From a virus, in IMG/VR virus record IMGVR_UViG_3300044701_004608, positions 1 to 64,000 of that record: a DNA stretch of 64,000 nucleotides, one strand, 5' to 3'. Within the stretch, counting starts at the first letter, position 1, and each line of letters opens with the position of its first letter. The position numbers and the translations under genes were made by a program. Shown here piece after piece: positions 7,080 through 23,372 of the stretch. Below the pieces are notes generated by a model. That model was not told the DNA's origin. It saw nothing but the letters and a program-made list of their open reading frames with translations, and made no database searches.

Positions 7080-7081
7080 AT

Positions 7082-8035
7082 TTAGTTCGCTCTTATAAAA
7101 TCAGTGATTCCGGAGATCAATTCATCCTCGACCCCACGGAATCCATGATGTCCCATTGAAAAATGGGGAAGCCCGGGGTCAATGCCACCGTCGATGGGTA
7201 AGTATTTTGTGACCTTGGCCCCTGATCTTTCTAAAATCGTGACAGCGATTAATTCGTCAGTGACTAACGCTCGATCTCTGATATGTTGCACAGTCATTAA
7301 TGGTATCTCTACTTCTTTCTGGAAATATTGCAATTTGTCAAGGCAATATCTCCAGGTGCTTCTCCAGCTCGGACTGGCCAAAATCATTCCAGAGATTTTT
7401 GTATGATCTTCTATCGTATCGTAAAACCTAGCCAGGAATTCACAGGCATTACAATGCCCAATAGTCCATAGTTGATTGTTCTCTCCCATTAGATTTTTAA
7501 TCTGCTCTAAAATCATAAAAAAATCTCGGTAGGCACTTAACAATCTTCCTTGCTGGGTATCGGGCGCCTTATCTGCCACGTAGGATAATTTATCCCATGG
7601 AAGATTTTTAAATTTTAAATTTTCTGTGACCCTAGTCCAGGCCCAGCCGAGTCCGTGGTCAAAATCTATCACTACAAGATTGATATCGTCGGGCCAACGA
7701 GCGAACAGATTCATAGGCAATATCATACCTCGAGGATAAATTTTTGTGTCGACAGCAAAGATCCTTCCAGCACCGCCGTGCAAGAAAATCGCTGTTTTAG
7801 AATTGTTTGGGTTCATCTTGACAAGAGCACGGTGTTTTCTTTTTGTACCTGTTATTGGATAAGGGCAAAAATCACCGTAGGTCGTTGATAAGAGTTCAAG
7901 GTCTTCGTCTGTGAGTATTTCTCCATGTTCAGACGGAAGATCGGGATCAAAGTCTTTTTTCCCCCAACCCTTAGAGTTTGACAAGTCTAGATTAAATTCT
8001 TTTTCCATTGAAGTTTGCCTATTCGAAAGGAGCAT
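7082..8035 (-). CDS. Alpha/beta-hydrolase-like protein
   Basis: IFLHGG, GHCNA elbow, C-terminal HHGF. Confidence 0.55.
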   Translation of the reverse strand: MLLSNRQTSMEKEFNLDLSNSKGWGKKDFDPDLPSEHGEILTDEDLELLSTTYGDFCPYPITGTKRKHRALVKMNPNNSKTAIFLHGGAGRIFAVDTKIYPRGMILPMNLFARWPDDINLVVIDFDHGLGWAWTRVTENLKFKNLPWDKLSYVADKAPDTQQGRLLSAYRDFFMILEQIKNLMGENNQLWTIGHCNACEFLARFYDTIEDHTKISGMILASPSWRSTWRYCLDKLQYFQKEVEIPLMTVQHIRDRALVTDELIAVTILERSGAKVTKYLPIDGGIDPGLPHFSMGHHGFRGVEDELISGITDFIRAN

Positions 8036-8044
8036 AAAGATAAG

Positions 8045-8383
8045 GCCCGGTTCTTTGGGTGATAAGGAAGAACCGGAAAAAGACCTCAGCTATGCCTTAA
8101 GCGGCGATAGCGAATGAACTGTCGTTTGCAGTTACTTGTTTTGCTTCTTCGGCCAGGAAACCCCAACCCTACGGTTTTCACATTACCGCGCTGTCCACTC
8201 CGCTACTCCTTGCCCTGTCGAAACCAGGTCCGGCCCATCAGAAGAAAACTTAGAACCTTTCACAGTGGCAACCATTTCTGGTTATGCCCGGGCCGCGGAC
8301 CCGCTAAATTTTCTTTTGGTGGACCGGGCGGGAATCGAACCCGCGTCCAGAACACATTTTGCTTCGCTTCATACAGCGATACT
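8045..8383 (-). ncRNA. ssrA: Permuted (two-piece) tmRNA; tag ANDSSFAIAA*
   Basis: T-arm and CCGGTCC-ACCA end at 8317; 80-nt spacer; GGGCCGG 5' end at 8236 giving a G3.U70 pair; tag frame 8129..8097; outer ends approximate. Confidence 0.9.
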
Positions 8384-8414
8384 ATTATTTATTATACACC
8401 CATCGGTCCGAAAG

Positions 8415-9236
8415 TCAACTGACTTTGGGTAGTTTGCCCGTACAGATCAAGTTGCTGGCGATGTAGCCAACGATACCTGACAGCATCAATGAAGCAGTCT
8501 GTGGGCTCAACCAAGCATATGGTGTCTTGATAACTGCTTGACTCATAACAAACGTGATAGCGGCGATGAGATCATCTTTGTGCTTTTCACCTACACCTTT
8601 TCTAACATCGGGAATGTGCCAGATCATATCAACCAAGAATGATGAGCAAGCATTACATTGAGTCATGACCACTGTGCGGGTCAGCGCACCTTTGGCCATA
8701 GCAGTAGCAGTTGCGGCGCACATTGGTGCGAACATGGCAGTGGTTTCACCTTCGGTGGCTGGGTTGTTTAGGCTTGCGGCAAAGGCACCAGTGATGGCGC
8801 TACTGACGCCGATCAGGCATGCGTTTTCAGCAAGGTATTCGCCCATGTCAACTAAACTGTCGCCAACCATGACAGCACCATCTTCGATCGCACTACCAGC
8901 GGTTTTCAATCCGGCGACGAATTCATCACTGGCATAGTTGGCTTTCTTGGCAGCATCGTTGTAGGTGTCAACAGCGGCTTGCTCAGCAGGCTTCAGCACC
9001 GTCTTGGTGATGTCGTTGATGGCCTTGGTGCTTTCCTTGGCGATCTGGTCTGCGGTCTTGTTGAGCGTCTTGGCGCAATCATTGACCACATCCTCTACTG
9101 TGTCCGTGGCATCTGTGAACGCTTTGCCTATGTCCTTGCCAGCATCTACCACTGCGTTGCCTACATCCTTGGCCCCATCGGTGATGGACTTGCCTACCTT
9201 TTTCCAACTCTTTTTGCTGAACGGATTGAATCCCAT
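8415..9236 (-). CDS. Hypothetical protein with amphipathic 11-mer-like N-terminal repeats
   Basis: ORF with AAGGA RBS. Confidence 0.75.
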   Translation of the reverse strand: MGFNPFSKKSWKKVGKSITDGAKDVGNAVVDAGKDIGKAFTDATDTVEDVVNDCAKTLNKTADQIAKESTKAINDITKTVLKPAEQAAVDTYNDAAKKANYASDEFVAGLKTAGSAIEDGAVMVGDSLVDMGEYLAENACLIGVSSAITGAFAASLNNPATEGETTAMFAPMCAATATAMAKGALTRTVVMTQCNACSSFLVDMIWHIPDVRKGVGEKHKDDLIAAITFVMSQAVIKTPYAWLSPQTASLMLSGIVGYIASNLICTGKLPKVS

Positions 9237-9254
9237 GTGTTTTTCCTTTTTATC

Positions 9255-9386
9255 TTATTCGTAAGGCTTTAGAAAATCATCGCCTTTGAAGTCTTCATCA
9301 AACTTGCTCCAGTCATACGTTGCTACTTTATAAATCCAATAAGCGTGTAGCCCAATGATCAGGAGAGCGAGAATTAAATTTGACAT
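9255..9386 (-). CDS. Small membrane protein (MSNLILALLIIGLHAYW, 43 aa)
   Basis: Hand-translated. Confidence 0.55.
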   Translation of the reverse strand: MSNLILALLIIGLHAYWIYKVATYDWSKFDEDFKGDDFLKPYE

Positions 9387-9393
9387 AATGTTA

Positions 9394-9609
9394 TTATAAA
9401 CTTTCTTGTTGCTTTACCTCGACTAGATCCACGATATGGACATAACCTTGTACTTTGACTTCGGGATCGTCGTCACAGATCAACCAGACATGCCCACCCA
9501 TCTCATCTTCGGGATGGTAGTGGCAGATGCGGAACACATGTCCGCGGTAAGCATCGTAATAGGGCTTGTAAGGTTCTTCGAAAACTCGGTCACAAAAACG
9601 GTATAGCAT
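9394..9609 (-). CDS. Hypothetical protein
   Basis: ORF track. Confidence 0.6.
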   Translation of the reverse strand: MLYRFCDRVFEEPYKPYYDAYRGHVFRICHYHPEDEMGGHVWLICDDDPEVKVQGYVHIVDLVEVKQQESL

Positions 9610-9648
9610 GGCTCTAAGTTTACAGACTTAGAGCCATGCTGTCAATGA

Positions 9649-11160
9649 CTAATTTCGGATGATGTAATCAAAAGCACCTAAAGCGGCATTAGCGCCCGAA
9701 CCCATGGAAATGATGATTTGCTTATACGGAACATTGGTACAATCTCCCGCGGCAAAAACACCTTCCATAGTAGTAGCGCCGTGTCCGTCGGTGATGATCT
9801 CACCGTAGCGAGTGCGATCCACTGCACCTTCCAACCAGTCAGTGTTGGGTACTAAACCGATCTGTACAAACACACCTTCTAAGGCCAAGTGCTGTTGGGT
9901 ATCAGTGTCACGTTCCACATAAGTGATACCCGTCACACGTTCGTCACCTTTGATCTCTCGGACTTGTACATTGGTGCGGACAGTGACATTAGGCAGACTC
10001 TTGAGTCGATCCTGTAGTACAGCGTCGGCCTTGAGTTTGGGCATAAATTCAAACACAGTGACATGACCTACGATACCTGCTAGGTCGATGGCTGCTTCTA
10101 CACCGGAATTACCACCACCTATGACAGCAACATGCTTGCCCTTGAATAGTGGTCCATCACAGTGTGGGCAGTAGGCCACGCCGCGATTCTTAAACTCCTC
10201 TTCGCCGGGAACGCCTAGGTTACGCCAGCGGGCACCAGTAGCGATGATCACTGTCTTTGATTTTAGCGTAGCACCTGATTCTAGTTCCACCTTGATCTGG
10301 CCGTTCTTCTCGATCTTTTTGGCACGCTGTAGGTTGAACACATCTACGTCGTACTCTTTGACATGCTCTTCTAACTGTGCCACGAGTTTAGGACCTTCTG
10401 TGTACTTGGTACCAATGAGGTTTTCGATGCCCATGGTGTCCATGACCTGTCCGCCAAAGCGTTCAGCTACGATGGCAGTACGGATGCCTTTGCGAGCCGC
10501 ATATACAGCAGCCGATGCTCCAGCAGGGCCACCACCTACTACAAGCACATCATATTCACGACCGTCGATGTCTGAAACATCTGCGGCTGATCCCAACTTG
10601 GCCAGGATCTCTTCGATGGTCATGCGGCCTGATCTAAACGATTCACCGTTGAGCCATACACTAGGCACAGCCATGATGTTGCGGTTGGTGGCTTCTTCTT
10701 GGAAAGCCGCACCGTCGATCATAGTATGAGTGATGCCAGGGTTCAGCACAGCCATGGTATTGAGTGCCTGGACTACATCGGGGCAGTTATGGCAAGTGAG
10801 ACTGATGTAAGTCTCGAAACGATACTCGCCACGCAGGGCTTTGATCTGTTCGATGACTTTGTCGTCGATCTTGGGTTTACGTCCGCTGACTTGTAACAAG
10901 GCCAAGATCAAACTAGTGAACTCGTGTCCAGTGGGCACACCTGCGAATGTGATGCGGTCTCCCACACGGAAACTAGGGGTGCGAGGCAGTTGGCCTGGCT
11001 CGATGGTGATCAAGTCTGTCATACCTGCGATCTCATGTAAGAGATCTAACATGGCTTGGCTAGTCTCGTCTAAGCCGGCACGCACCGTGATGGCAACAGG
11101 ACCCTCGAGCAGTTTGAGATACTGCTCGAGTTGGCTACGGATAGTCTGGTCCAATAGCAT
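9649..11160 (-). CDS. ahpF: Alkyl hydroperoxide reductase subunit F
   Basis: CHNC and CPHC redox centres; GGGPAG and GGGNSG nucleotide-binding motifs. Confidence 0.97.
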
Positions 11161-11162
11161 AA

Positions 11163-11726
11163 TTAGATCTTACCTACGAGGTCAAGACTTGGTGTCAATG
11201 TTGCGGCACCTTCTTTCCACTTAGCAGGGCAGACTTGACCTGGGTTAGCGGCTGTGTATTGTGCGGCCTTTAGTTTACGTAGAGTTTCCTGTACGTCACG
11301 AGCGATCTCGTTTGAGTGTACTTCGGCTGTCTTGACGATACCGTCTGGGTTCACGACGAATGTGCCGCGGAGTGCGAGACCTTCGCTGTCGATGTGTACA
11401 CCAAAACCACGTGTCATTGTATGTGTGGGATCGCCTACGAGAGGAAACTTGGCCTTGCCAACAGCAGGCGATGTTTCGTGCCATACTTTGTGGCTGAAGT
11501 GTGTGTCAGTTGTGACGATGTAGACTTCGGCACCCATCTTCTGGAACTCGGCATAGTTATCAGCGGCGTCTTCGATCTCTGTTGGGCAGTTAAATGTAAA
11601 TGCCGCAGGCATGAAAATGAACACATTCCACTTGCCTTTGATCGACTCGCTAGAGACTTCCACGAACTTGCCATTATGGTAGGCTTGTGTTTTAAACTCG
11701 GGTACTGCTTGATTAATAATAGACAT
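11163..11726 (-). CDS. ahpC: Alkyl hydroperoxide reductase subunit C (peroxiredoxin)
   Basis: [23 protein letters not shown]. Confidence 0.97.
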
Positions 11727-11816
11727 ATCGGTTTTTCCTTTTTCGTTGAGGTAAAGATAACATACTTGGGCATTTCGATTTCCAAGATGTTTTGTTGCGT
11801 TGCGTTATTGTACAGA

Positions 11817-11892
11817 TATTTATAATAGAAATCAACTATTTTTCAGTCATTTTCCATTTTATTTTCCTATGGGACTAATAGCCTGCGCTAAT
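11817..11892 (-). promoter_or_regulatory. TATAAATA late box plus OxyR-like ATAG-N7-CTAT sites upstream of ahpC
   Basis: ATAG-N7-CTAT at 11825-11839; ATTT-N7-CTAT-N7-ATAG-N7-TAAT at 11856-11892. Confidence 0.65.
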
Positions 11893-13638: not shown

Positions 13639-13713
13639 CCAGAATCTGTTGTAAAAAAGCCACAAAAAAACCCTTGATTTACAAGGGTTTTTAAGGGGAG
13701 TTTTTGGGGTCGT

Positions 13714-14490
13714 TTATTTCATTGCCACTTGCATATAACTCTTAAAGTTTTCTTTGCGATCCTGTAGTCCATTGAGACTTGGATTGATGGGCTTGGTCAC
13801 GTCCGTAACGTCGTGATAATTATCCACGTTTGGTTGTACACGATGTTTCCAGAACCAGACAGCGATCTGTGCAGCGATCTCTGGTTTCTCTGCGAGCTCA
13901 GGATGCTTCTCTAGTGGAAGATTCAATTCTTGACCGGCACGACGGTAATTGTCTCTACCAGTGAGTTGTATGTATCCGCGGCCTTTGTATCTAGCACCAT
14001 CGCCAGCATACTTGTTGCCTAAAGCACGAGCTTTCTTAGGAGCATGCTTTGGATCATACTTACGGAAATCTAGGCTACCGCCGATCTCGCGTAGTGTCTT
14101 GAAGTCCAGTGTTTCGTGGGCGCATTGTGCCATGAAGGCCGCGAGCTCTGTGCCTTTGATTCCTGAATCCTTGGCTGTCTTTAGCAAGACATACTCTAGT
14201 TTGTTTCCGGTAATGGGTTTGACGTCTACTTTTTTGGGTTTGGTCTGACCAGCTTTGGCCACCGAGGTCTTGGGTGCGGGTTGTGTGACAGGTTTGACAT
14301 CTTGCTTTGGAGCAGGTGCTGTCACTGCGGCCGCGGCCTGTGGTGCTTGCTTAGGAGAAGTCAGTGCTTGTTTAGCCATCAATGCCCCAGTTCCTGTGGC
14401 AGCGATAGTTCCAGCCATGGCTAGGTTGGCCAGTTGTTCTCTCCAACCTTCGTCTAACTGTTCTTCTATGATAAACTCTTGTGCTCGCAT
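13714..14490 (-). CDS. GH19 chitinase/lysozyme-like protein with MRAQEFIIE leader
   Basis: FMAQCAHET, YKGRGYIQLTG, AVWFW, INP..NGL.DR motifs. Confidence 0.9.
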   Translation of the reverse strand: MRAQEFIIEEQLDEGWREQLANLAMAGTIAATGTGALMAKQALTSPKQAPQAAAAVTAPAPKQDVKPVTQPAPKTSVAKAGQTKPKKVDVKPITGNKLEYVLLKTAKDSGIKGTELAAFMAQCAHETLDFKTLREIGGSLDFRKYDPKHAPKKARALGNKYAGDGARYKGRGYIQLTGRDNYRRAGQELNLPLEKHPELAEKPEIAAQIAVWFWKHRVQPNVDNYHDVTDVTKPINPSLNGLQDRKENFKSYMQVAMK

Positions 14491-14494
14491 ACTA

Positions 14495-15400
14495 TTACTT
14501 ATTCTTCCCAGCCTTCATATTAGCACACCAGTGATACATCTTGCCCTTTTCTCCACCGTACTTACGAGCCTTGGCTCTTAAATCAGTTACTGATCCGGCA
14601 CAACTAGCACCTGCACGTTTTACACGTCCAGGACGGCTTTTACCTTTGACCTTGCCATCAGCAAAGTTTTCTTCGATTGAACTTTGCTCGTAGAGTCGGT
14701 ATAATTTGTAAGTAGTGGAACCAGCAAAGTCTGATATGTCTGCTTCGTAGCCCATGGCACTGGCATAACGACGGACCAAACTTGTGTATAAATTTGATCT
14801 ACTGCCAGCCTTTTGTCCAGGCTCAACATCTTTGTTGGCACTGAAATATAATTGCTCGGGTTTTCTTTTTTCAATGAATTGTGCGATAGCCGCTAGTACT
14901 GTGGCAAACACACGCTGAGCATCGCCTGCGCCTGTGACTTCTTGACTGTTGTCGCGCCAAAACTCCACACTGTAAATGCCTTGGCCATTGTCATCATAAT
15001 CCTGGTTAAACATGATGCTCAAATTTGATCCATCAGGCAAGCGAGCCAGCGCATCTACACTTTCGTCGGCATCGCTCTTCGACCATTTGATAGGGTAAGG
15101 TTGATCCAAAGATTCCATAATACCAGTGGCACGACGTAGTCTTAAATCGTAGTCTACATCGCTTTCATAGTTGGCAATATAGTCAGCGTAATAGCGTTGG
15201 GCTTCCGCAGGTGTATTGGCTTCGAACTTGTGGACTATTTTAGTAGGGTGTTTGGCATGATATATTTCATAACCTTTGTTAAGTCTATCACGCACACGAG
15301 CCATGCGTTCTAATCTTGCGTCAACTTGACGGCCAGCACGACTTAGATAGCGTTCTAACTGTTCATCGCTGATTTCGTTGATAAATTCTTTTGCTCTCAT
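14495..15400 (-). CDS. Multidomain putative internal virion protein (MRAKEFINE)
   Basis: Shared leader; central domain similar to 15975..16418. Confidence 0.75.
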   Translation of the reverse strand: MRAKEFINEISDEQLERYLSRAGRQVDARLERMARVRDRLNKGYEIYHAKHPTKIVHKFEANTPAEAQRYYADYIANYESDVDYDLRLRRATGIMESLDQPYPIKWSKSDADESVDALARLPDGSNLSIMFNQDYDDNGQGIYSVEFWRDNSQEVTGAGDAQRVFATVLAAIAQFIEKRKPEQLYFSANKDVEPGQKAGSRSNLYTSLVRRYASAMGYEADISDFAGSTTYKLYRLYEQSSIEENFADGKVKGKSRPGRVKRAGASCAGSVTDLRAKARKYGGEKGKMYHWCANMKAGKNK

Positions 15401-15978
15401 AGGCTAAAAGGATCCAGTATGACGATGTGTCCATCGGCTCTTCGAGCTAGGTTCTCCACATTAGATAGGTCCAATGGTGCCCAACCTCCCAAAGCGGCCA
15501 CTAGTTCGTCGGTGGCCATAATCAACCCGGTTATTTCGTCGGGGTTTAGTCCTGCGGGTATTTTGTTTTTGTCTTGGAATTCGCCTACTCGATCTCTATC
15601 AATAGCTGACATCAATTTTTCGATGTAGTCTAAGATGTCATCGTCGTTGGATAGATAGTTTGGTAGATATTCCATTTCATACAAAAAATATGTTTCTCCG
15701 TCTACAGTGAATTCTCCAGAATTATATATCTTTGGATAGTAAGGATTGCGCTGGTTGCGGACAAAAAAGTCTACATATCTTTTTACTATGTCTTCTCTTT
15801 CGGATTCGCCGGTACCCAGTATTTTGACCACTGTTTGTCTAGGACTCAGGAAAGCCATTTGATCTCTCCCCTCGCCAATGAGTTTATATCCACGCTGTAT
15901 GAAATACTGTTGGATACGATCACTGACAGTGAGTTCGTCGGGGTAGTTGACTTCGCGAACAAATTCACTGGCTCTCAT
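15397..15978 (-). CDS. Protein kinase-like protein (MRASEFVRE)
   Basis: IGEG loop, VVKI, EMEYL hinge, DLSNVEN, ILDP; start trimmed to ATGA overlap. Confidence 0.7.
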   Translation of the reverse strand: MRASEFVREVNYPDELTVSDRIQQYFIQRGYKLIGEGRDQMAFLSPRQTVVKILGTGESEREDIVKRYVDFFVRNQRNPYYPKIYNSGEFTVDGETYFLYEMEYLPNYLSNDDDILDYIEKLMSAIDRDRVGEFQDKNKIPAGLNPDEITGLIMATDELVAALGGWAPLDLSNVENLARRADGHIVILDPFSL

Positions 15979-16418
15979 CGCTTGGGCTCCCAGACAAATA
16001 CAGTCATGTCTCCTGGTACGATCTCCAGTTGCCACCGATCGCCCAAGATGTCTTGGATCACTGGCACGAAATATCGCTTGTACAGCTCGATGCGGCTGGC
16101 ACCTTTGGCCGTGAATGTGACCTTAGGCGGTCGTGCTGATTTCATGTACTGGGGCAACTGTTCGCGGACGATCTTCAGCACTGTGCTGAGGATGCGTATC
16201 ACCGATCCACTGGCTTTTGTGGCCCGGGGTGGTGCTTCGTAGTTTTGATTCACTGTGAATGTGATCTGTAGACTGTCATTTATAGGGCTACGATCAAAGA
16301 AAACATCCACCCATTGGCCGTCTACTGTGGCATGGAACAGGCTACGCCGCCTGCGACGATTGGGTTCGTATTCGCTAGGCCGATCACCTATCTCTCGTAG
16401 GAACTCGCCGGCCCTCAT
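15975..16418 (-). CDS. Putative internal virion protein (MRAGEFLRE)
   Basis: Shared leader; ILSTV...FTAK..SRIELY matches VFATV...FSA...SRSNLY of 14495..15400. Confidence 0.75.
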   Translation of the reverse strand: MRAGEFLREIGDRPSEYEPNRRRRRSLFHATVDGQWVDVFFDRSPINDSLQITFTVNQNYEAPPRATKASGSVIRILSTVLKIVREQLPQYMKSARPPKVTFTAKGASRIELYKRYFVPVIQDILGDRWQLEIVPGDMTVFVWEPKR

Positions 16419-18847
16419 TACCTCATCTCCGGCACTACTTCGACTTCTTGTCCGGCTAACTCGGGGTGGTTGCGTCCTAACCAGCCAGCGGCAAATCTGT
16501 TAGCATCGTGCTGGCTGTTGCCTATGCCACCAAATCTGTGTAGCACACGGCCGTCAGCATTCTTGATCAGCCATTGGCCTGTCCACTCGCCCTGTGGTTG
16601 GGCGGCACGCTGTTGTTCACGTTCCTGATCTTGCTTATAATACATTTTTTCATCGTCAGTGGCCAGTCTAGCACGGGCATCCTCGTGCCCAAAGTCGCTG
16701 TCGATCATGGCGGCTGTCTGGATGGCTTGGGCTTGGCTACGGGCCGTGACGAACTTGTATTTGCTGTGTAGGTTCACACGCCACAGTTGCTCACCCACAT
16801 CTTTGGTGCTACGAGTCACACGCTTGGCCAACTCAGCACGACGGTTGATCTGTTTCTTTGGCTCTGTGGCCTGCGGATTCTCGACGTCGATTGGAACATC
16901 CTCGTCACCTTGCTTGGCACGCAACACAGTCTCGGCCCACTGGCGCTTGAGCTCTTCACCGGTGATATCACCTGCGGAATAGTTAGCGAACAGTTGCATG
17001 AAAGGATTGTTGGGGTCGTCTTTGGTCAAGACTTTGTAGAGTTTCTTAGCGTATTCTTTTCTATATAGATCGGGTCTGCCGGCTATGCTCATGGCATATG
17101 CTAATCTTAGCATAGTGTTTTCTAGTATGCCGTCGATCTCGCTTTCCTTAGAGAGATAATCGCCGCCGGGGCCGCGGAATTCGATATAGCCATCGTGCGG
17201 ATGGACGCTCATATACTTGTCGCCCAACACACCACGCTGTAATTCACGATCTGCGAGTTCGATGAGATTAGATTTCATCAGTTCCATCACACCCTCGATT
17301 TGCTTGGGGCCGGCGTTCCTCATGCTGGAGATCTTCTGCGTGAGTCTTTCATAGGCAGACTTGGTATAGTAGTTGCCGGAGCGGCCAAACTTTTCAAGTA
17401 GATCCTTATCGCCCATGAACAGGATCAGTTTGATGGGATCAACATCGCCACCTTTAAATGGCAACGAAACACCCATATGTATGCCCGTGGAACTATTAGT
17501 GTAGGCATCACCGGAACCATTGGCCCAGTCAATGACCTTCATCAGTTGTTCTATGGCTTCGGGTAACGGCATAGGTGGAGACACCACTTCTAGGCCGTAG
17601 TCTGTGCTGTCGTCGGGATCAAGGCTTGAGTCAGGTTCCAATACATACCATTCGCCACGACGGGTGCCGTGATAGCCACTGCTCACACGTACATCTAGAC
17701 CAGTTGCACGTTCAAGGCTATTTCCAATATCGTCCCAATCTCGGCTTCCGCCGTTGCCATCACCGCCACGATAGTAAGGCCAATCCACTTCATAGGAGTT
17801 AGAGACGTCACTCATCCAGCGATAGTTTTCAGCCAGCCAATCTTCTTCCGAGGCTTGGCTGTCACGGAAATCATCCCAGGACTCTTCTTCGGCCTGTTGA
17901 TACCACTCGCCTTGGCTTTCAAAATCACCAAGGCGATCAGTTTCAAAATTATCACGTGCTAGTTCTTCTACTGCTGTGTCTTCGGCGTCTTCGCCCAGTT
18001 CCTCTCGAGCACGATCCATGTATCCATCTTCGACATCGGGCCAGATATTGTCTTGTACCCAATCGTTGTACACATTCTCGTCCCAGTAGTCATTGTAGAA
18101 TGATTCTCTCTGCCAGTCCTGCCAATCTTCGTACATGCTATTGCGTAGTCGATTGGCAGCGTTGCGTCCTATGCCATCGCCACCTTGGAAAAAGTCGATC
18201 ACCGATTCGATGCTATAAGCACGCTCGTCAGTGTCGTAGTCGGGTTCATATTCTTCGTCATCGTCGCCGTTTTTGGTATCACGGAATATCAGCTCTGCTT
18301 CAAAGCCAGCACGAATGCCTTCGGCTTCAGGACTGTTAAGGAATCGTCGGAATGCCGATGGCGACATCTCTACTTCGTCTAGGATCTCTTCGTTAATGGC
18401 AAAGTCTCGGGTCGGCTTCGCGGTCTTGACTATCTTGTATCGGCTTTGTTCGTTGCCGAGCCCGGCTAGTTCGTCGCGAGCAGACTGCTCGTCGTCGTGT
18501 GTGCTCAATGTGTCACCGGATTCTCGATCACGGATGGCGAATCGTGTTTCCTGACTTTCTCCGATAGCCTTCTGTAGTGTGAGATAGTGGAAACGACCCA
18601 ATGGAAGTTGGAACTTGCGAGCGATCATCTCTAGGTCATTGAGTAGCTGGCGTGTGAGACGACTCTTGTTTTTTTGCTTGGCTAAAAGTTCAACGGCCTG
18701 TTGCATGGATTCCACGCTGTTGTTGCCAGTGACTCCCAAGATGTCATTCAAAGCATCACGGATGTCGGTATCTTTCTCGATGGGCTTGCCAGCCAAGGTG
18801 TAGTACTGTGCTTCGCGTAGTTTCTTGTTTATCTCACGGAACTTCAT
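16418..18847 (-). CDS. Putative amidoligase (COOH-NH2 ligase type 2) multidomain protein
   Basis: GFEAE, EPDSSL, GLEVVSPP, TNSSTGIH, KY, IEFR motifs. Confidence 0.75.
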   Translation of the reverse strand: MKFREINKKLREAQYYTLAGKPIEKDTDIRDALNDILGVTGNNSVESMQQAVELLAKQKNKSRLTRQLLNDLEMIARKFQLPLGRFHYLTLQKAIGESQETRFAIRDRESGDTLSTHDDEQSARDELAGLGNEQSRYKIVKTAKPTRDFAINEEILDEVEMSPSAFRRFLNSPEAEGIRAGFEAELIFRDTKNGDDDEEYEPDYDTDERAYSIESVIDFFQGGDGIGRNAANRLRNSMYEDWQDWQRESFYNDYWDENVYNDWVQDNIWPDVEDGYMDRAREELGEDAEDTAVEELARDNFETDRLGDFESQGEWYQQAEEESWDDFRDSQASEEDWLAENYRWMSDVSNSYEVDWPYYRGGDGNGGSRDWDDIGNSLERATGLDVRVSSGYHGTRRGEWYVLEPDSSLDPDDSTDYGLEVVSPPMPLPEAIEQLMKVIDWANGSGDAYTNSSTGIHMGVSLPFKGGDVDPIKLILFMGDKDLLEKFGRSGNYYTKSAYERLTQKISSMRNAGPKQIEGVMELMKSNLIELADRELQRGVLGDKYMSVHPHDGYIEFRGPGGDYLSKESEIDGILENTMLRLAYAMSIAGRPDLYRKEYAKKLYKVLTKDDPNNPFMQLFANYSAGDITGEELKRQWAETVLRAKQGDEDVPIDVENPQATEPKKQINRRAELAKRVTRSTKDVGEQLWRVNLHSKYKFVTARSQAQAIQTAAMIDSDFGHEDARARLATDDEKMYYKQDQEREQQRAAQPQGEWTGQWLIKNADGRVLHRFGGIGNSQHDANRFAAGWLGRNHPELAGQEVEVVPEMR

Positions 18848-19542
18848 AGTGTAAGGTCTCTATCTTGTAATTTCAGTGCGGCTTTCGCGATCATGTCGAT
18901 GGCACCCATGTTGCGCAGGGTCTTGAATGTGAGGTTCTCTACTCCGAACTCGCCACCGGACTCTAGTCCGGCTTTCCGCATGTCGCGCAGTCGCTTCAAT
19001 ACCATTTTCAAATCGTCGGCCGATTCGGCATGCTCCATGCTCTTGCGTATCAAGTTCAGCATCGACTTGACTTTGAGTTGTATGGCGCGGCCATCGATCT
19101 CGGGTTCATCATGTTGGGGTTCTTTGATCCACTCGTCGTTCATTAGGCTATACATGCCACCCGAGTGTGGGGGATTGTCATCGTCTTCGATGTAGAGTTC
19201 GATCTCGTGATCCTGGATCATGATGTCGTGGGCATCGTTCCAGATCTTCTTCTTGGCATTGTAGAAGTTTTCTGCGATGTCAGGACATCGTAGGCTGTCG
19301 TAGTCAGTGACCACATGTAGGTCGAAATCGCTGAAGCGATTCCAGTTGTAGTTGGCGTTAGATCCTGTCAGCACTATGTCTAGGACTTGGAAATTCGGTA
19401 TCTCAAGATACTCCACGAACTGCTTCGCTACTTTCAGCAAGTGTGCGCGGATCTCAGGTCGGAGGCTGGTGCCTTGCCAGGCCACTGGATTCAGTGTGTC
19501 GTTGTAGCGTGTGGTCTGGGCCAACAAGTCTCGTGCGTTCAT
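18844..19542 (-). CDS. Pol-beta superfamily nucleotidyltransferase
   Basis: LTGS...SDFDLH motif and third acidic strand IELY. Confidence 0.8.
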   Translation of the reverse strand: MNARDLLAQTTRYNDTLNPVAWQGTSLRPEIRAHLLKVAKQFVEYLEIPNFQVLDIVLTGSNANYNWNRFSDFDLHVVTDYDSLRCPDIAENFYNAKKKIWNDAHDIMIQDHEIELYIEDDDNPPHSGGMYSLMNDEWIKEPQHDEPEIDGRAIQLKVKSMLNLIRKSMEHAESADDLKMVLKRLRDMRKAGLESGGEFGVENLTFKTLRNMGAIDMIAKAALKLQDRDLTL

Positions 19543-20345
19543 TATCTTTTACAGGTCTTTTTCTTGTCGTCGGCCACTGTCTTGTAATCGATGTTCCAGA
19601 TTGGGGCCTTGGTTGTCTTATTTACCGCTGGCGATAACGGGAAGTTTATACCGCTAAAACGCTCGATGTCAGCGATGGTAGTCTGTACGCGGCCGAGATC
19701 TTTACCAAGATCTTCTCGATGTGGGAATATGAAAGCCAAGGCTTCGTTGGTGCGCTGGTCCACGATGATCTTGAAGAAGCCCTTGGGCACCACCACACCA
19801 GATCCGATCTTGGGATCTGTGGCTGTGTCATAGATGGCGCCAGCATAGACGATCAAGGTAGTTTTGCGTTCAAACGCCCAAGCACCTGTGGCTGTCTCCA
19901 ACAGTTTCCATATGCCGCGATTGAGTCCGGGCAACTGTGGCATCATGTTAGTCATCAGGAACGATTCGTATTCCACCATCTCTGCCCAGCTCTGGTGTGC
20001 GTCGTTGGCCAAGTGACCTTTGTCGTAGCCGGTGCCGGCATAATCTTGTGGAGAGGCAGAACTAGGGATATATTGGTTCCTAGTGAAACCATCTGTTCGT
20101 GGCCAGCAACCGTTCACGCGATCATGGCGGACTTGCCAGGCGCCCCACACAGGGATCTTGGCTTGATTGTCATGCCCAAGATAATAGCCTTCACGGCATT
20201 CGTTAGTCACAGATGGTTTTTGGCTTTTAGGAGTGCCCCAAGGTGCGTGTATAGCACAGGCTGTTTCGGGAAGTGGAGCTCGCTGTTGCCAAGCCCAGAC
20301 CGGGGAAGTTAATAGAAATACTAATGCTAGTAGAACGCGACGCAT
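19542..20345 (-). CDS. Secreted DNA/RNA non-specific endonuclease (NucA/EndA type)
   Basis: Signal peptide; GYDKGHL, NMMPQ..LNRG.W..LE motifs. Confidence 0.9.
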   Translation of the reverse strand: MRRVLLALVFLLTSPVWAWQQRAPLPETACAIHAPWGTPKSQKPSVTNECREGYYLGHDNQAKIPVWGAWQVRHDRVNGCWPRTDGFTRNQYIPSSASPQDYAGTGYDKGHLANDAHQSWAEMVEYESFLMTNMMPQLPGLNRGIWKLLETATGAWAFERKTTLIVYAGAIYDTATDPKIGSGVVVPKGFFKIIVDQRTNEALAFIFPHREDLGKDLGRVQTTIADIERFSGINFPLSPAVNKTTKAPIWNIDYKTVADDKKKTCKR

Positions 20346-20385
20346 ACTTGATCCTTTTTGGTAGATCAAGTATTTATCGTAGCAG

Positions 20386-20988
20386 TTATTTCAGTGCGAC
20401 TTCCGTGTAGTCGTAGTTGGCCATATGGCCCCAGCTCTGGGATATACGCTTTTCGCTGTCGTCTGCGTCCAATATCACACGCAATAGACGTGCTCCGTTT
20501 GAGATATGGAAACGTGCCACGGGATCTCGCTTGTTTTCCAGGAATTCACGCAAGCCAATGACATCAGGGCATTCGTCAAAGTTTTCACGAAGCGTGGGGA
20601 TAGGACTCATAGTAGTGAAATGCCGGATATCGGGATATTTTTCGCGTATGATCTCTGCGGCTTCTAACACCAAGTCAGCACCGATATTTTTGGTAGAAGA
20701 TTCCACGTCTGTGCGGAACACAGAATAGAAGATAGCGTGTGTGGCCTGCTCGATGGGCACGATGTCAGAGCCGATGTCTAAGATATCGCTGATCTTGTCG
20801 GGCAAGCCACGAGTATATGCTACGCAGAGCACAGCGATAGGTAGTCGGTTTTCTGTGCGGAAGAAGATCTCTCGATCTTCTTTGGTCCTGCGTTTTACAG
20901 GTCGATCTTCACTGATCCCGTGGACTGGGTCCTGATGTAGATACTCTAAATAAGAGTCTGCTCCGGGGAATAAGTGATTCACTATCAT
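20386..20988 (-). CDS. Malonyl-CoA decarboxylase C-terminal-like protein
   Basis: [33 protein letters not shown]. Confidence 0.75.
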
Positions 20989-21581
20989 ACTTCTCTTTTC
21001 TCGATGATCTTGTCGATTAGACCGTAGGCCAAGGCTTCCTCGGCGGTCATGAAGTTGTCGCGTTCCATGTCGGGTACAAACTCTTCGTAGGTCTTGCCGA
21101 TGCTGTTGTGCTTGACATAGAGTCCGGTCAGGAAACGCTTCATGCGCATGATCTCTTCGACCTGGATCAGCATGTCAGTGGCTTGTCCACGAGCACCACC
21201 CAAGGGTTGGTGGATCATGTGTCGAGCATGCGGTAACATGAGTCGCTTGCCGGGTGCGCCAGCAGTGGCCAGCAATGAACCCATGGAGCAAGCCTGGCCC
21301 ATCACGATGGTCGACACGTCGGGCTTGATGAACTGCATGGTATCATAGATGGCCATGCCGTCGGTGATGCTCCCGCCCGGGCTGTTGATATAGAACAGGA
21401 TGTCAGAATCGGGGTCTTCGGCCTCCAGGAACAACATCTGGGCTACCAGTAGCGATGCTGAGTGTTCGTTGACATCCGTGTCTAGGATGATAATCCGCTC
21501 TTTGAGCAAGCGGCTGTAGATGTCATAGGCACGTTCGCCGTTTGAGGTCTTTTCTAATACAGTTGGTACAAAGTTTGGCAT
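20985..21581 (-). CDS. clpP: ATP-dependent Clp protease proteolytic subunit
   Basis: [36 protein letters not shown]. Confidence 0.97.
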
Positions 21582-22693
21582 TTTTCACCCATCCGTTGAT
21601 ATAATTCAGGAAATGTCTCAGGGAAACTCTGATCCCTGTGTTTGTCTAGTATTTTAACATAACGCATCAATATGTCAAGCCTATCACTGTGATCATCGGC
21701 CCACATGGCATCCAAAATAGGCAATAGAGCCGGGTCTCGACAACGCTCAGTGATGGCCTGTTTGGCTTCCTCAGGCAATACCGTTATGGAATATTGCTCG
21801 GGTCGGGACACCAATCCGAGGTAAGGATCGGGCAGGCCTTCCCGCCTACACCATTCTATGAACTCAGGTAGGTGCCAGATGGTGAAAACGCTGACGCTGT
21901 GGCTTATGGATATCTGTAGGTTAGGCAACACCGAACGGAGTCCATCATTGAAGTACTTGACGTTCATGTAGACTTCTTCCCAGTTCGCGGGCCAACGATT
22001 GTATTCGAACACACCATAGATGCCATCGATGCTGATCTGGAGATCCACTTTCTTGAACTGGCTCCAGCGTTCCAATAGTTCGGCACAGGGCATCTGTGTA
22101 CCATTGGTGATATAATGTAAGCTGACTTCTGATGCTCCATGACCGATGATATGATCCAAGAAGTCGATATGCTGTTCTTTGCCGGCTAGGAAAGGCTCGC
22201 CACCAGGAAACTCTATGTGCTTGACCTTCTCTAGTAAGGCTTTGATGTGCCGCATGAAGTGGTCGTCACGGTAGTAGCGTTGGTGACCGTAGATCTTGAT
22301 CTCGGGAAAGTTTGCGGCCAGCTTGCGGCTTTCTTGTCCCCACTTGCTGGAAGCATGGCTACCACATATTCGGCAGGCTAGATTACAGGTGTTGCCAAAA
22401 GGCAAGCTGATCACCGCGAGATAGTCATGATCAGGTTCCTGCTCTTGGAAAACATACTGCCAGTCCAGTTGTCGCTTGCTGGGCAGGCCGGAATCTTCAT
22501 CTCGCCAGCAACGAGCACAACCTGCGGGCCGTTCACCTCGTTCAAAGGCCTGCTTGAGTTCTTCAAGCTCGTTGCTGGCGAAATAGCCTTGTAGGTCGTG
22601 TGCTATAGGGTGGGAGTATTTACAGCAGGGTTTGAAATCGCCTTGCGGACTGATGTCAAGCCCCACCCAGGGGTGGTGGCATAGTGACATCAC
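21554..22693 (-). CDS. Radical SAM protein with N-terminal twitch/SPASM-like domain
   Basis: [20 protein letters not shown]; N-terminal PCC and CARC. Confidence 0.85.
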
Positions 22694-23271
22694 TTCTTTA
22701 CGCGACGTTTGTGGACTTCGGCGACATGATCGCAGAGTCCGAGTTTGAGTGCTTCTTGGGCACTAAGATAGACATCATGCGGTGGTAACAAATGTTTGCG
22801 GATGTTTTCGTCAGAAAGGTTGGTACACACACGATAGTGATTGAGCATGCGCTCTTGTGTGAGTTCATACTCTTTGACCACTGCGAACAGTTCGTGCTCT
22901 TTGCCCGATGTGCCCCAGGAGAACTGGTGACTTAGGATCGAAGTGTTCGGGGTGAGCACCCGGCGACCAGCCGTGCCAGCCAGGAATATCAGCAATCCGC
23001 ATGAAGCGATACAACCTAATCCCACGGTCTTGATAGGGATGGTGCTGGCGTTCATGACGTCGATGAGCGCGAACCCATCCACTACCGAACCACCGTCCGA
23101 ACAGATCATCAGGATCAGTTCTTTCTTTTTGGTCTTCTGGACATGATTCTCGATCAAGATCCATTCGATCACGGGTTTGACATTCTCTTCGTTGATGTCT
23201 CCCATGAGGACGAAAATACCTGCGTCCTGTGTGCTTAACTCCGGGGTATCGTTGTAATTTTCTTGTGGCAT
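22690..23271 (-). CDS. Second, divergent ClpP-family protease
   Basis: ICSDGG, IASCG, LSHQ, DVYLSAQEAL.LGL.D. Confidence 0.85.
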   Translation of the reverse strand: MPQENYNDTPELSTQDAGIFVLMGDINEENVKPVIEWILIENHVQKTKKKELILMICSDGGSVVDGFALIDVMNASTIPIKTVGLGCIASCGLLIFLAGTAGRRVLTPNTSILSHQFSWGTSGKEHELFAVVKEYELTQERMLNHYRVCTNLSDENIRKHLLPPHDVYLSAQEALKLGLCDHVAEVHKRRVKK

Positions 23272-23372
23272 ATTATATGATCAAAAAAAATGTTGGAACG
23301 GCGCTACTTAGACTATTATATAGCATACATAGCGCCGAGCCAACATTTTTTGGCTAAAACTCTATGGCGGAT

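Follow-up and report, generated by a model that had tools for sequence, protein, structure and literature searches.

Gene content of the locus

The locus described here lies on the minus strand of a 64-kb stretch of viral DNA (the window), the first 64 kb of the 111.8-kb record IMGVR_UViG_3300044701_004608, which is a fragment of an uncultured T4-like jumbo phage with a CheckV completeness of 32%. Seven genes form a single run, in which an endonuclease gene is followed by six genes designated P6 to P1 in the direction of reading. The features, all on the minus strand, are as follows.

20371..20378, GATAAATA box, candidate T4-type late promoter, 26 nt upstream of the ATG at 20345
19542..20345, DNA/RNA non-specific endonuclease (PF01223, E 2.7e-37) with Sec-type signal peptide MRRVLLALVFLLTSPVWA
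18844..19542, P6, nucleotidyltransferase-like protein, 232 aa (Pfam, phrog_36119)
16418..18847, P5, 809 aa (Pfam Amidoligase_2, E 6e-7)
18812-18847, P5 leader MKFREINKKLRE
18389-18397, P5 joint INE153, which separates an N-terminal module (residues 13-153) from the amidoligase module (from residue 154); a C-terminal module of 60 aa occupies residues about 745-809
15975..16418, P4, GNAT-like module, 147 aa (hhalign to P2 family)
16392-16418, P4 leader MRAGEFLRE
15397..15978, P3, minimal protein-kinase-like enzyme, 193 aa from the first ATG (Foldseek, AF2)
15952-15978, P3 leader MRASEFVRE
14495..15400, P2, three-module chain, 301 aa (AF2, Foldseek)
15374-15400, P2 leader MRAKEFINE, followed by a helical module (residues 10-96)
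15113-15121, P2 joint IME96, followed by a candidate GNAT-fold module (residues 97-244)
14669-14677, P2 joint IEE244, followed by a basic two-Cys tail (residues 245-301)
13714..14490, P1, GH19 lysozyme, 258 aa (PF00182, phrog_181)
14464-14490, P1 leader MRAQEFIIE
13664..13690, intrinsic-terminator-like hairpin closing the run (AAACCCTTG-TAAAT-CAAGGGTTT and a T run, read from the sequence)

The candidate promoter that heads the seven-gene run is a single 8-mer with one mismatch to TATAAATA. In a complete relative (G001), NATAAATA boxes are almost exclusively intergenic, at distances of 6-45 nt before gene starts, including those of the portal gene and the amidoligase homologue. A sigma-70-like promoter is present further upstream in the window (23315-23343), and two ClpP-like genes are located just upstream of the cluster. 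The endonuclease is the first gene of the run and has no leader of the kind described below; its signal peptide suggests that it is probably exported rather than packaged, and thus not all members of the unit would be head cargo.

A shared N-terminal leader

The original prediction was that four adjacent genes share a start of the T4 capsid-targeting type and that the next two carry versions of it. The ORF listing bears out the former, P1 to P4 all opening with MRAxEF[I/V/L]xE; as to the latter, P5 does have a fifth, longer variant, but the start of P6, MNARDLL, is a weak, degenerate and non-canonical tag. The genome-wide scan for M[RK]xx[ED][FIL] that had been proposed as a check found the motif at gene starts within the window only in P1 to P5, the two other matches being deep inside ORFs; beyond the window, four looser cases are present in the 111.8-kb record, at 70.8-75.9 kb. 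When first ATGs of ORFs of at least 80 aa were compared with later ATGs, the strict motif was present at 4/206 against 0/503 in this record and at 56/1433 against 1/5288 in 80 related viral loci (an enrichment of about 200-fold), although the sequences behind these leaders, like those behind the junction statistics given below, are mutually related and the counts are not independent events. Within the 80 loci the leader is carried by 64 similarity groups, the protein families concerned being unrelated to one another.

The leaders end in a hydrophobic-x-Glu triplet (IIE, INE, VRE and LRE in P1 to P4, and again LRE in P5). Glu occupies position 9 in 111 of 248 leaders when these are loosely defined, and by definition in every strict leader. 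Among 42 distinct leaders Ala3 is specified by four codons, and the codons for Glu5, Phe6 and position 7 also differ, so the leader is conserved at the protein level and not at the DNA level; codon 2 is AGA or AAA, and the early codons are A/T-rich. A theme of the MRAxEF type was not described in the literature searched.

Predicted enzymes of the cluster

The GH19 domain proposed earlier for P1 was recovered by Pfam (PF00182, residues 104-229, E 2e-12, 47.9 bits against a cut-off of 25.5), and P1 also matches the endolysin family phrog_181 (E 5e-43). Its leader is followed by a Gly/Ala-rich hydrophobic segment, a Pro/Ala/Lys linker and the GH19 domain (104-257). The hydrophobic segment, at residues 21-40, stands behind an acidic leader (net charge about -4) and has Lys on its C-terminal side; in some relatives the corresponding segment is Tat-like. 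Such a signal-like segment is unexpected if the protein is to remain inside the head. SAR endolysins, which are free-standing lysis enzymes, have a weakly hydrophobic segment at the N-terminus that leaves the catalytic domain in the periplasm. In relatives the GH19 unit of P1 is the C-terminal end of leader-bearing, multi-enzyme polyproteins; G001 has a separate, plain GH19 of 211 aa.

The first ATG of P3 overlaps the upstream stop as ATGA. In its AF2 model (pLDDT 82.8) residues 1-15 are disordered, and the model gave 121 PDB matches at E<=1e-3 in Foldseek, the best with a probability of 1.00; among the matches listed, nearly all are protein kinases (SRPK1, AAK1, GAK, PknB) or kinase-fold phosphotransferases such as APH(2''). 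The bilobal kinase fold is marked by a Gly-rich loop, an ATP-binding Lys, a catalytic Asp/Asn and a metal-binding Asp; in P3, G35, G37, K52, D170, N176 and D189 are invariant in 28 homologues. At the level of the predicted fold, the earlier description of P3 as kinase-like is therefore confirmed, and the protein can be placed in the protein-kinase-like superfamily.

Two copies of an unknown domain had been noted in the cluster, and P4 does prove to be related to the middle module of P2 (hhalign to the P2 family, probability 91.8%, E 7.4e-7, 124 columns; BLASTP, E 7e-4), with a GNAT fold now proposed for both. The P2 model matched the acetyl-CoA domain of ICL2 and many N-acetyltransferases in Foldseek (E 1e-4 to 7e-3), with low TM scores because the model holds several domains. 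The Pfam match of these GNAT candidates (P2 residues 97-244; P4), to DUF6934, is below the cut-off (23.8 bits against 27). The basic tail of P2 recurs as a C-terminal appendage on many viral enzymes, including ART-PolyVal proteins, and also on enzymes that are as a rule periplasmic, Cu/Zn superoxide dismutase for example, and in a 5'-nucleotidase cluster with a Tat signal in 26% of its members.

The two remaining assignments fared differently. For P5 the amidoligase is upheld by Amidoligase_2 at 30 bits against a cut-off of 22, while for P6 the Pfam nucleotidyltransferase score falls just under the cut-off (20.4 against 21) and it is the strong match to phrog_36119 that speaks for the assignment.

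Polyproteins and module joints in relatives

In relatives the nucleotidyltransferase, the amidoligase, P2-type modules and GH19 are parts of single chains of 1373-2060 aa, in which the counterpart of P6 is the first module and the 60-aa module found at the C-terminus of P5 always terminates the chain. The P6 gene ends exactly at the junction where the relatives read LSLxE. Because the relatives encode the same modules as single chains, the six genes look like one cargo polyprotein split at its joints, with most of the pieces bearing the full tag again.

Inside the polyproteins only hydrophobic-x-Glu precedes the modules, whereas free-standing modules always gain M-R/K-A-x-E-F before the same three residues. 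Glu stands directly before the module, as P1 residue, at 137/168 distinct internal module starts, and in 119 of these 137 junctions the P3 residue is V, L, I, M or F, while P2 takes 16 different residues; with a looser window, 171/212 junctions fit against a background of 10%. The kinase module, beginning VNYPDEL, may be preceded by a leader or, behind unrelated upstream modules, by LKE, IKE, IRE, IWE, LGE, LAE, ISE, VNE or LRE. Homologues starting MRFREFELTE/DELFELKMSP and MRYKELLSE/QQLDELRMSP align to P5 from residue 154 onward, and relatives begin each of the P2-type modules directly behind a leader.

Within the cluster, internal [ILV]xE motifs had been suggested to fall near domain boundaries, and this is the case for IME96 and IEE244 in the 301-aa protein and INE153 in the 809-aa protein. 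The AF2 model of P2 is folded at 12-77, about 100-235 and 257-296 and of low confidence at 1-7, 81-93 and 240-255; both joints are thus in or beside low-confidence linkers, as are the leaders in the models of P2 and P3.

Head genes in relatives

The complete relative G001 (356,865 bp) is collinear with the source record, with 77/174 ORFs matching and an NrdA identity of 82%. It encodes a Gp23-type capsid protein (E 5e-99), a gp21-type prohead protease (Peptidase_S77, E 3e-25), a T4-type portal (E 5e-108) and, between the protease and capsid genes, a scaffold-like protein of 372 aa. Four of the six [ILV]xE motifs of the capsid protein are within its first 42 residues, directly preceding the core that aligns to T4 gp23. 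A Peptidase_S77 protease is also present in the leader-bearing relatives G004, G008 and G010. The 111.8-kb source fragment, which is 32% complete, holds no head genes and gave no gp21 or gp23 match, and there was no T4-type capsid, portal or protease match in another relative, G002 (343 kb, rated 99% complete); the terminase of G002 is so close to the contig end that its head block may simply be missing.

Discussion

The head-loading sequence of T4, an N-terminal leader of about 10-19 residues, has been something of a textbook oddity, met with in a few small proteins; Mullaney and Black are said to have reported in 1996 that it targets proteins to the capsid and is processed by gp21. The T4 genome record (NC_000866) gives MKTYQEFIAE for ipIII, as the original prediction had stated, and the same for ipII, together with MAKINELLRE for gp24, MELITELFDE for alt and MLKEQLIAE for gp22. 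A capsid-targeting sequence and gp21 processing are described for IPI, IPII, IPIII and Alt (PMC9026906, PMC3012670), with residues 4 and 7 of the leader concerned in targeting and residues 8 and 10 in processing (PMC9026906); at the equivalent positions the leaders described here keep Phe, Ile/Val/Leu and Glu. In both systems a short leader with the core E-F-I-x-E, ending in hydrophobic-x-Glu, is found on proteins that have nothing else in common, and both lineages have head genes of the gp21, gp22 and gp23 types (those of the cluster's lineage being in relatives); the T4 precedent includes an injected enzyme, Alt. The cluster differs in that its leader is one residue shorter, with M-R-A instead of M-K-T-Y, and in that its cargo consists mostly of enzymes and not of small basic proteins; it is also modular, being strung into long polyproteins in relatives, where every joint has this motif, and is predicted from sequence.

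Since the tag is much like that of T4, the enzymes are probably packed into the virus particle, and we hypothesize, with a probability of about two-thirds, that the proteins of the cluster are carried inside the head of a T4-like jumbo phage, being loaded, trimmed and injected. Our working hypothesis is that the leader of 9-12 residues (M-R/K-A-x-E-F-[I/V/L]-x-E) docks each free-standing polypeptide on the scaffolding core of the prohead, and that a prohead protease of the gp21 family then cuts after the Glu of hydrophobic-x-Glu, both where the leader ends and wherever the motif recurs between modules. Cutting would free a GH19 wall hydrolase, two GNAT-fold modules, a small kinase, an amidoligase, a nucleotidyltransferase and small helical and basic modules as separate proteins, which would be kept in the head together with the packed DNA and go out with it when a cell is infected. 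All the computational tests that were run fit a T4-type leader cleaved after Glu, namely the likeness to T4, the head genes of relatives, N-terminal placement, selection at the protein level, fusion and fission, disordered linkers and the late-promoter-like box. The earlier view of the cluster as a capsid-targeted and cleaved toolkit is in this way partly supported; targeting, cleavage, retention in the virion, injection and the host roles of the enzymes are what we infer, and a part in host takeover or anti-defence is guessed at from the kinds of enzyme present.

One alternative explanation is that leader and joints are signals for a cytoplasmic protease, the pro-enzymes being used in the same infection and some of them exported to the periplasm. 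This would account for the Sec/Tat-like segments found right behind the joint in some modules (in one related locus, L036, the leader is followed by ITRRDFLRGVGAA), for the tail module on periplasmic-type enzymes and for the secreted nuclease in the same transcription unit, and the neighbouring ClpP-like genes could be taken to point the same way. To our knowledge, however, ClpP alone does not cut at defined sites and the prohead protease acts only inside proheads. The latter is the only Glu-specific protease documented for T4-type phages in the papers cited here (PMC5694885, PMC9026906), Pfam found no other protease domain in the six proteins, and the likeness of the leader to the T4 sequence would have to be coincidence, so we regard this explanation as quite unlikely. 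We give no greater weight to the suggestion that the leader is an uncleaved docking peptide for some other phage assembly, or a signature of late-gene expression or stability, for which translation might be helped by an AGA or AAA second codon and A/T-rich early codons. In its favour, Glu9 is present in fewer than half of the loose leaders, and instead of marking a cut site the conserved hydrophobic-x-Glu could open the fold of each module, as its first strand or helix cap. Yet at the joint P3 and P1 are fixed and P2 alone is variable, the models place the joint within or beside linkers of low confidence and outside the folded cores, and the free-standing modules consistently extend the same three residues into a full leader; a signal at the RNA level is argued against by the synonymous codon variation.

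That the shared start has no function and is merely left over from the tandem duplication or gene conversion of a single ancestral 5' end, with the GH19 protein an ordinary endolysin, is already disfavoured and seems to us very improbable. The four canonical leaders are indeed on adjacent genes, P2 and P4 share a domain and the GH19 protein matches endolysin families, but the leaders precede proteins of unrelated folds (GH19, kinase, GNAT-like, amidoligase) and are carried by 64 groups in the 80 loci, with DNA that differs at silent sites. Moreover, the GH19 unit ends leader-bearing multi-enzyme chains in relatives, and G001 has its own plain GH19.

Head loading as proposed here can also be compared with the polyvalent proteins of phages and conjugative elements (Iyer, Burroughs, Anand, de Souza & Aravind, 2017; PMC5512222). 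These likewise combine many unrelated effector-type enzyme domains (2-15) in one phage polypeptide, for which packaging and delivery along with the DNA are predicted; in the cluster, P2 consists of three modules and P5 of at least three. Processing by metallopeptidase domains within the chain, frequent but not obligatory, is proposed there, whereas no peptidase family was among the Pfam and PHROG matches of the six proteins, the joints here match the motif of the head protease and the chain is split into separate genes in the window. A term search of that paper gave no match for amidoligase and a single one for 'prohead'. In phiKZ-like giants (SPN3US, phiKZ, 201phi2-1), ejection and inner-body proteins are cut by a gp21-related protease at A/S/G-x-Glu (PMC5694885). 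These too are giant phages with many head-loaded proteins trimmed after Glu, and their paralogues share identical N-terminal propeptides, but the P3 residue is small, the propeptides are mostly longer than 100 residues, the lineage is different and the cargo has been verified by mass spectrometry. The gp0.7 kinase of T7 is an early gene product, made after infection. Like it, P3 is a phage-encoded protein-kinase-like enzyme, with a weak profile match to the gp0.7 family (phrog_15752, E 5e-4), but it has about 180 residues, a cut-down C-lobe and a head-loading-type leader.

It is tempting to speculate on two-step addressing, in which the leader would bring each chain into the head, cutting there would expose new N-termini, some of them of the Sec/Tat type, and the export machinery of the new host would route injected enzymes to the periplasm. 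Candidates are the GH19 unit, RRGFL-type segments in relatives and leader-plus-Tat starts as in L036; we consider the idea unlikely, but if true it would make the injected proteome of a large uncultured jumbo phage clade, and its destination in the host, readable from sequence. If the MRAxEF-type leader works like that of T4, dozens of enzyme families, including kinases, acyltransferases, amidoligases, nucleotidyltransferases and wall hydrolases, would be marked as virion cargo in large, abundant, uncultured freshwater jumbo phages. Since proteins carried by the phage act before any phage gene is expressed, they would be prime candidates for countering host defences and for takeover, and the leader and joint rules would turn many 'hypothetical proteins' into testable candidates and provide a naturally occurring set of loading tags and cleavable linkers with which foreign proteins could be packaged in phage heads. 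The same pattern is found in cultured T4-like phages: in S-CRM01 the neighbours of the nucleotidyltransferase homologue begin MISFDQFLSE, MKKLDQFLTE and MKLFNQFFKE, and ORF252 of nt-1, which adjoins prohead-protease-inhibitor genes, reads NLTE/AFDKP.

The proposed cargo gene cluster and its enzymes

The IMG/VR record, whose first 64 kb make up the window, is a 111,782-bp linear fragment with a CheckV completeness of 32 %, and the region gave no megablast match against 50,697 phage records. The putative cargo genes lie in one tightly packed minus-strand run, extending from 20378 down to 13664, in which seven genes follow one another end to end or with overlaps of a few bases. The exact sequence of P3 is also present on a 339,769-bp contig.

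Features of the gene run (window coordinates)
20371–20378, minus strand: GATAAATA box, heading the run
19542–20345, minus strand: gene 1, DNA/RNA non-specific endonuclease with a signal peptide (Pfam, E 2.7e-37)
18844–19542, minus strand: P6, 232 aa, start MNARDLL
16418–18847, minus strand: P5, 809 aa, start MKFREINKKLRE
15975–16418, minus strand: P4, 147 aa, start MRAGEFLRE
15397–15978, minus strand: P3, 193 aa, start MRASEFVRE
14495–15400, minus strand: P2, 301 aa, start MRAKEFINE
13714–14490, minus strand: P1, 258 aa, start MRAQEFIIE
13664–13690, minus strand: clean hairpin and T-run, closing the run

The original prediction named the cargo as a GH19 lysozyme, a kinase-like protein, an amidoligase, a nucleotidyltransferase and two copies of an unknown domain, and these assignments largely held. 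P1 belongs to GH19, scoring 47.9 bits where the cut-off is 25.5 and matching phrog_181 endolysin at E 5e-43, and P5 contains an Amidoligase_2 core, which scores 30 bits (cut-off 22). The AF2 model of P3 (pLDDT 82.8) gave 121 Foldseek matches in the PDB at E<=1e-3, and among the matches listed nearly all are protein kinases (SRPK1, AAK1, GAK, PknB) or kinase-fold phosphotransferases such as APH(2''); with residues G35, G37, K52, D170, N176 and D189 invariant, P3 is predicted to be a minimal protein-kinase-like enzyme. The module in the middle of P2 matched the ICL2 acetyl-CoA domain and many N-acetyltransferases (E 1e-4 to 7e-3) and is a predicted GNAT fold, of which P4 is the second copy (hhalign 91.8 %, E 7e-7). 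P6, which is nucleotidyltransferase-like, fell just below the Pfam cut-off and was recovered by phrog_36119 (E 2e-46), and one homologue was named aminoglycoside nucleotidyltransferase by its depositor. Searches of P3, P5 and P6 against PDB sequences with phmmer gave nothing significant.

A shared N-terminal leader

Read from the ORFs, the four adjacent genes for P1–P4 do share the leader start MRAxEF[I/V/L]xE. The likeness proposed for the next two genes stood for P5, which has a longer variant, and failed for P6, which lacks the full canonical leader; likewise, a scan of gene starts in the window for M[RK]xx[ED][FIL] returned P1–P5 only, the remainder of the record holding four looser cases at 70.8–75.9 kb. 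With later ATG codons within the same ORFs as the control, a strict form of the motif (M[RK]xx[ED][FL][ILVFT]x[ED]) was found at 4/206 first ATGs and 0/503 later ATGs of the record. The corresponding figures for 80 related loci, fetched using P2 from the more than 590 relatives in IMG/VR, were 56/1433 and 1/5288, counts drawn from related sequences rather than independent events. These loci encode 248 distinct proteins with this type of leader, falling into 64 similarity groups, and the genes often sit side by side, as many as seven together.

A conserved translation-initiation region or a recombination box could generate such similarity at the nucleotide level. Codon choice differs, however, among the leaders of P1–P4, and 42 distinct MRAxEF[ILV]xE leaders use four codons for Ala3 and variable codons for Glu5, Phe6 and position 7. 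On the strength of this silent variation a nucleotide-level cause was rejected, and the target of selection is taken to be the peptide rather than any element of the RNA or DNA. We also considered the leader as a ClpXP degron, a possibility suggested by two ClpP-like genes upstream, and dropped it because degradation fails to explain the defined joints and conserved enzymes; presumably, too, the leader does not match N-terminal ClpX motifs.

The closest parallel is with T4, in whose record ipII and ipIII start MKTYQEFIAE and ipI starts MKTFKEFTST..ITE; the starts of gp24, alt and gp22 are MAKINELLRE, MELITELFDE and MLKEQLIAE. The first ten residues of IPIII are enough for head loading, targeting depending mainly on residues 4 and 7 and processing on residues 8 and 10 (PMC9026906), and cutting after Glu is common to all T4-type and phiKZ-type prohead proteases (PMC5694885). 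When aligned on E-F-I-x-E, the leaders described here retain Phe in the place of residue 7, Ile/Val/Leu in that of residue 8 and Glu in that of residue 10, and are one residue shorter at the front. To judge from their sequences, cultured relatives show the same logic of leader and joint. Beside the P6 homologue of cyanophage S-CRM01 are proteins starting MISFDQFLSE (kinase-annotated, 822 aa), MKKLDQFLTE and MKLFNQFFKE (cytidyltransferase). In Vibrio phage nt-1, ORF252 carries a GNAT-type module after NLTE|AFDKP and its neighbour ORF253 starts MIEFLTE, both lying among genes annotated as prohead protease inhibitors.

Joints between modules

Modules that follow a leader in one protein are found inside longer proteins elsewhere. 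Among 168 distinct internal module starts, again from related sequences and not independent events, Glu directly precedes the module in 137, with V/L/I/M/F at subsite P3 in 119 of those 137 and 16 different residues at subsite P2; in a looser window, [ILVMF]xE occurs at 171/212 junctions against a background of 10 %. The clearest case is the kinase module of protein P3 (VNYPDEL...), which in some homologues from a large protein collection directly follows a leader (MRAQDFISE|, MRVHEFVAE|) and which, after unrelated upstream modules, is preceded by LKE|, IKE|, IRE|, IWE|, LGE|, LAE|, ISE|, VNE| or LRE|.

Internal sites had been placed near apparent domain boundaries, and comparison with relatives bears this out. 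Protein P2 is divided as INE9, helical module, IME96, GNAT-fold module, IEE244 and basic tail; its stretch RRATGIME aligns to the leaders (MRAHEFIAE and similar) of relatives beginning with the second module, and a 66-residue protein of locus L065 consists of leader and tail alone. In the AF2 model of P2 three modules are predicted with confidence, and the low-confidence stretches (1–7, 81–93 and 240–255) are at or adjoin the three sites; residues 1–15 of the P3 model are disordered. P5 is divided as LRE12, N-module, INE153 and amidoligase, relatives starting MRFREFELTE|DELFELKMSP.

Relatives encode chains of 1373–2060 residues that have the nucleotidyltransferase as their first module, start MNILELDSY and continue with a conserved LSLxE joint, a basic linker, P2-type modules and amidoligase, the chain of locus L023 additionally ending in a C-terminal GH19. 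P6 ends exactly at this joint (..DRDLTL, then a stop codon), and the downstream pieces bear the full canonical leader (P1–P4) or the longer variant (P5). The six genes thus look like one such polyprotein divided into separate pieces. Modules travelling alone thus appear, on sequence comparison, to carry the leader, and those within chains only the three-residue joint, a pattern that would follow if the address of the chain were M-R/K-A-x-E-F and cutting took place at hydrophobic-x-Glu.

Head genes of related phages and a proposed mechanism

No head genes were found in the 111,782-bp fragment. The fragment is collinear with the 356,865-bp contig G001, which has a completeness rating of 100 % (77/174 ORFs matched in the same order; NrdA identity 82 %). 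The head genes of G001 are of T4 type and encode a capsid protein of the gp23 kind (E 5e-99), a portal (E 5e-108) and a gp21-type prohead protease belonging to Peptidase_S77 (E 3e-25), with a scaffold-like gene between those for protease and capsid. Four of six [ILV]xE motifs in the G001 capsid protein fall within residues 1–42, immediately ahead of the core aligned to T4 gp23, an arrangement such as a propeptide removed by a Glu-specific protease would show. The Peptidase_S77 family is also present in the leader-bearing contigs G004, G008 (complete) and G010. Contig G002 (342,865 bp, rated 99 % complete) carries leader proteins and a nucleotidyltransferase-amidoligase polyprotein; T4-type capsid, portal and prohead protease were looked for in it and none was detected. 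In G002 a distance of 40 kb separates the terminase, at 303 kb, from the contig end, and the head block of G001 lies 45 kb beyond the terminase, so the G002 head block may have been cut off by the contig end.

We consider it probable, at roughly two chances in three, that the cluster encodes head cargo that is packaged, cut and injected. Cleavage right after the Glu of leader or joint would expose new N-termini in the mature cargo, with predicted starts EQLDEGWR (P1), ISDEQLER, SLDQPYPIK and NFADGK (P2), VNYPDELTVSDR (P3), IGDRPSEYEPNR (P4) and AQYYTLAGKPIEK and EILDEVEMSPSAFR (P5). The T4 capsid-targeting sequence and its use by T4-like phages to load varied proteins have been published (PMC9026906, PMC3012670), as have 'polyvalent' phage proteins, which combine several domains and for which packaging is predicted (PMC5512222). 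Literature searches on the leader, covering cyanophages and jumbo phages, returned T4 and SPN3US work only, with no description of this leader variant, of its occurrence on many enzyme families of uncultured jumbo phages, or of head-protease-type joints as fusion/fission points.

Directly behind the point at which the GH19 unit would be cut is a Gly/Ala-rich hydrophobic segment (14371–14430; P1 residues 21–40), replaced in loci L040, L068 and L036 by twin-arginine-like motifs (RRGFLKGMAGG; leader then ITRRDFLRGVGAA), and other leader proteins have a Tat motif immediately behind the leader. It would take the predicted cleavage to make these export-like signals N-terminal. Such segments fit export after delivery into a host, a bolder reading, and fit export in the producing cell as well.

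The exact TATAAATA showed no enrichment in the window (2 observed, 1.35 expected) and, unlike it, the looser NATAAATA is informative. In G001 NATAAATA boxes are almost confined to intergenic DNA, 6–45 nt upstream of genes. These genes include the portal, together with the amidoligase homologue. This distribution favours the box at 20371–20378, a single 8-mer, as a candidate late promoter.

Additional observations

P2 ends (14495–14669; residues 245–301) in a basic tail of 57 residues that contains two Cys, NFADGKVKGKSRPGRVKRAGASC...MYHWCANMK, and shows 80–93 % identity across many viral contigs. In a protein atlas the P2-type tail is C-terminal on viral NUDIX, 5'-nucleotidase, GNAT, ART-PolyVal, Cu/Zn-SOD and pterin-4a proteins, and may serve to tether head cargo to DNA or as a second, C-terminal address. 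A 60-residue module of P5, GEWTGQWLIKNADGRVLHRFGG... (16418–16612; residues about 745–809), forms the extreme C-terminus of amidoligase-bearing chains in at least 10 relatives and is never internal.

The four genes with looser leaders (MRLREFNDK, MKLTEIGG, MKIVELLNK and MKIDEIMRE) occupy 70788–75866 of the whole record (6788–11866 of locus L001), three of them conserved in order in G001. One product, of 233 aa (71.2–71.9 kb), has a hit (E 1e-10) to a PHROG whose annotation is virion structural protein, with no match to phages by tblastn.

Just upstream of the run, 20386–23271 is a block kept beside the cargo genes in G001. One of its genes is malonyl-CoA-decarboxylase-like (PF05292, E 6e-31) and another is of the radical-SAM type; in addition there is a true ClpP, with 84 % identity to the G001 protein, and a second ClpP-like gene that is divergent. 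A sigma-70-like promoter lies beyond the block at 23315–23343. At 9649–11726 are genes for AhpF-like (503 aa) and AhpC-like peroxiredoxin (187 aa) proteins in a phage, assigned by reading the sequence only and preceded by a TATAAATA box at 11817–11824.
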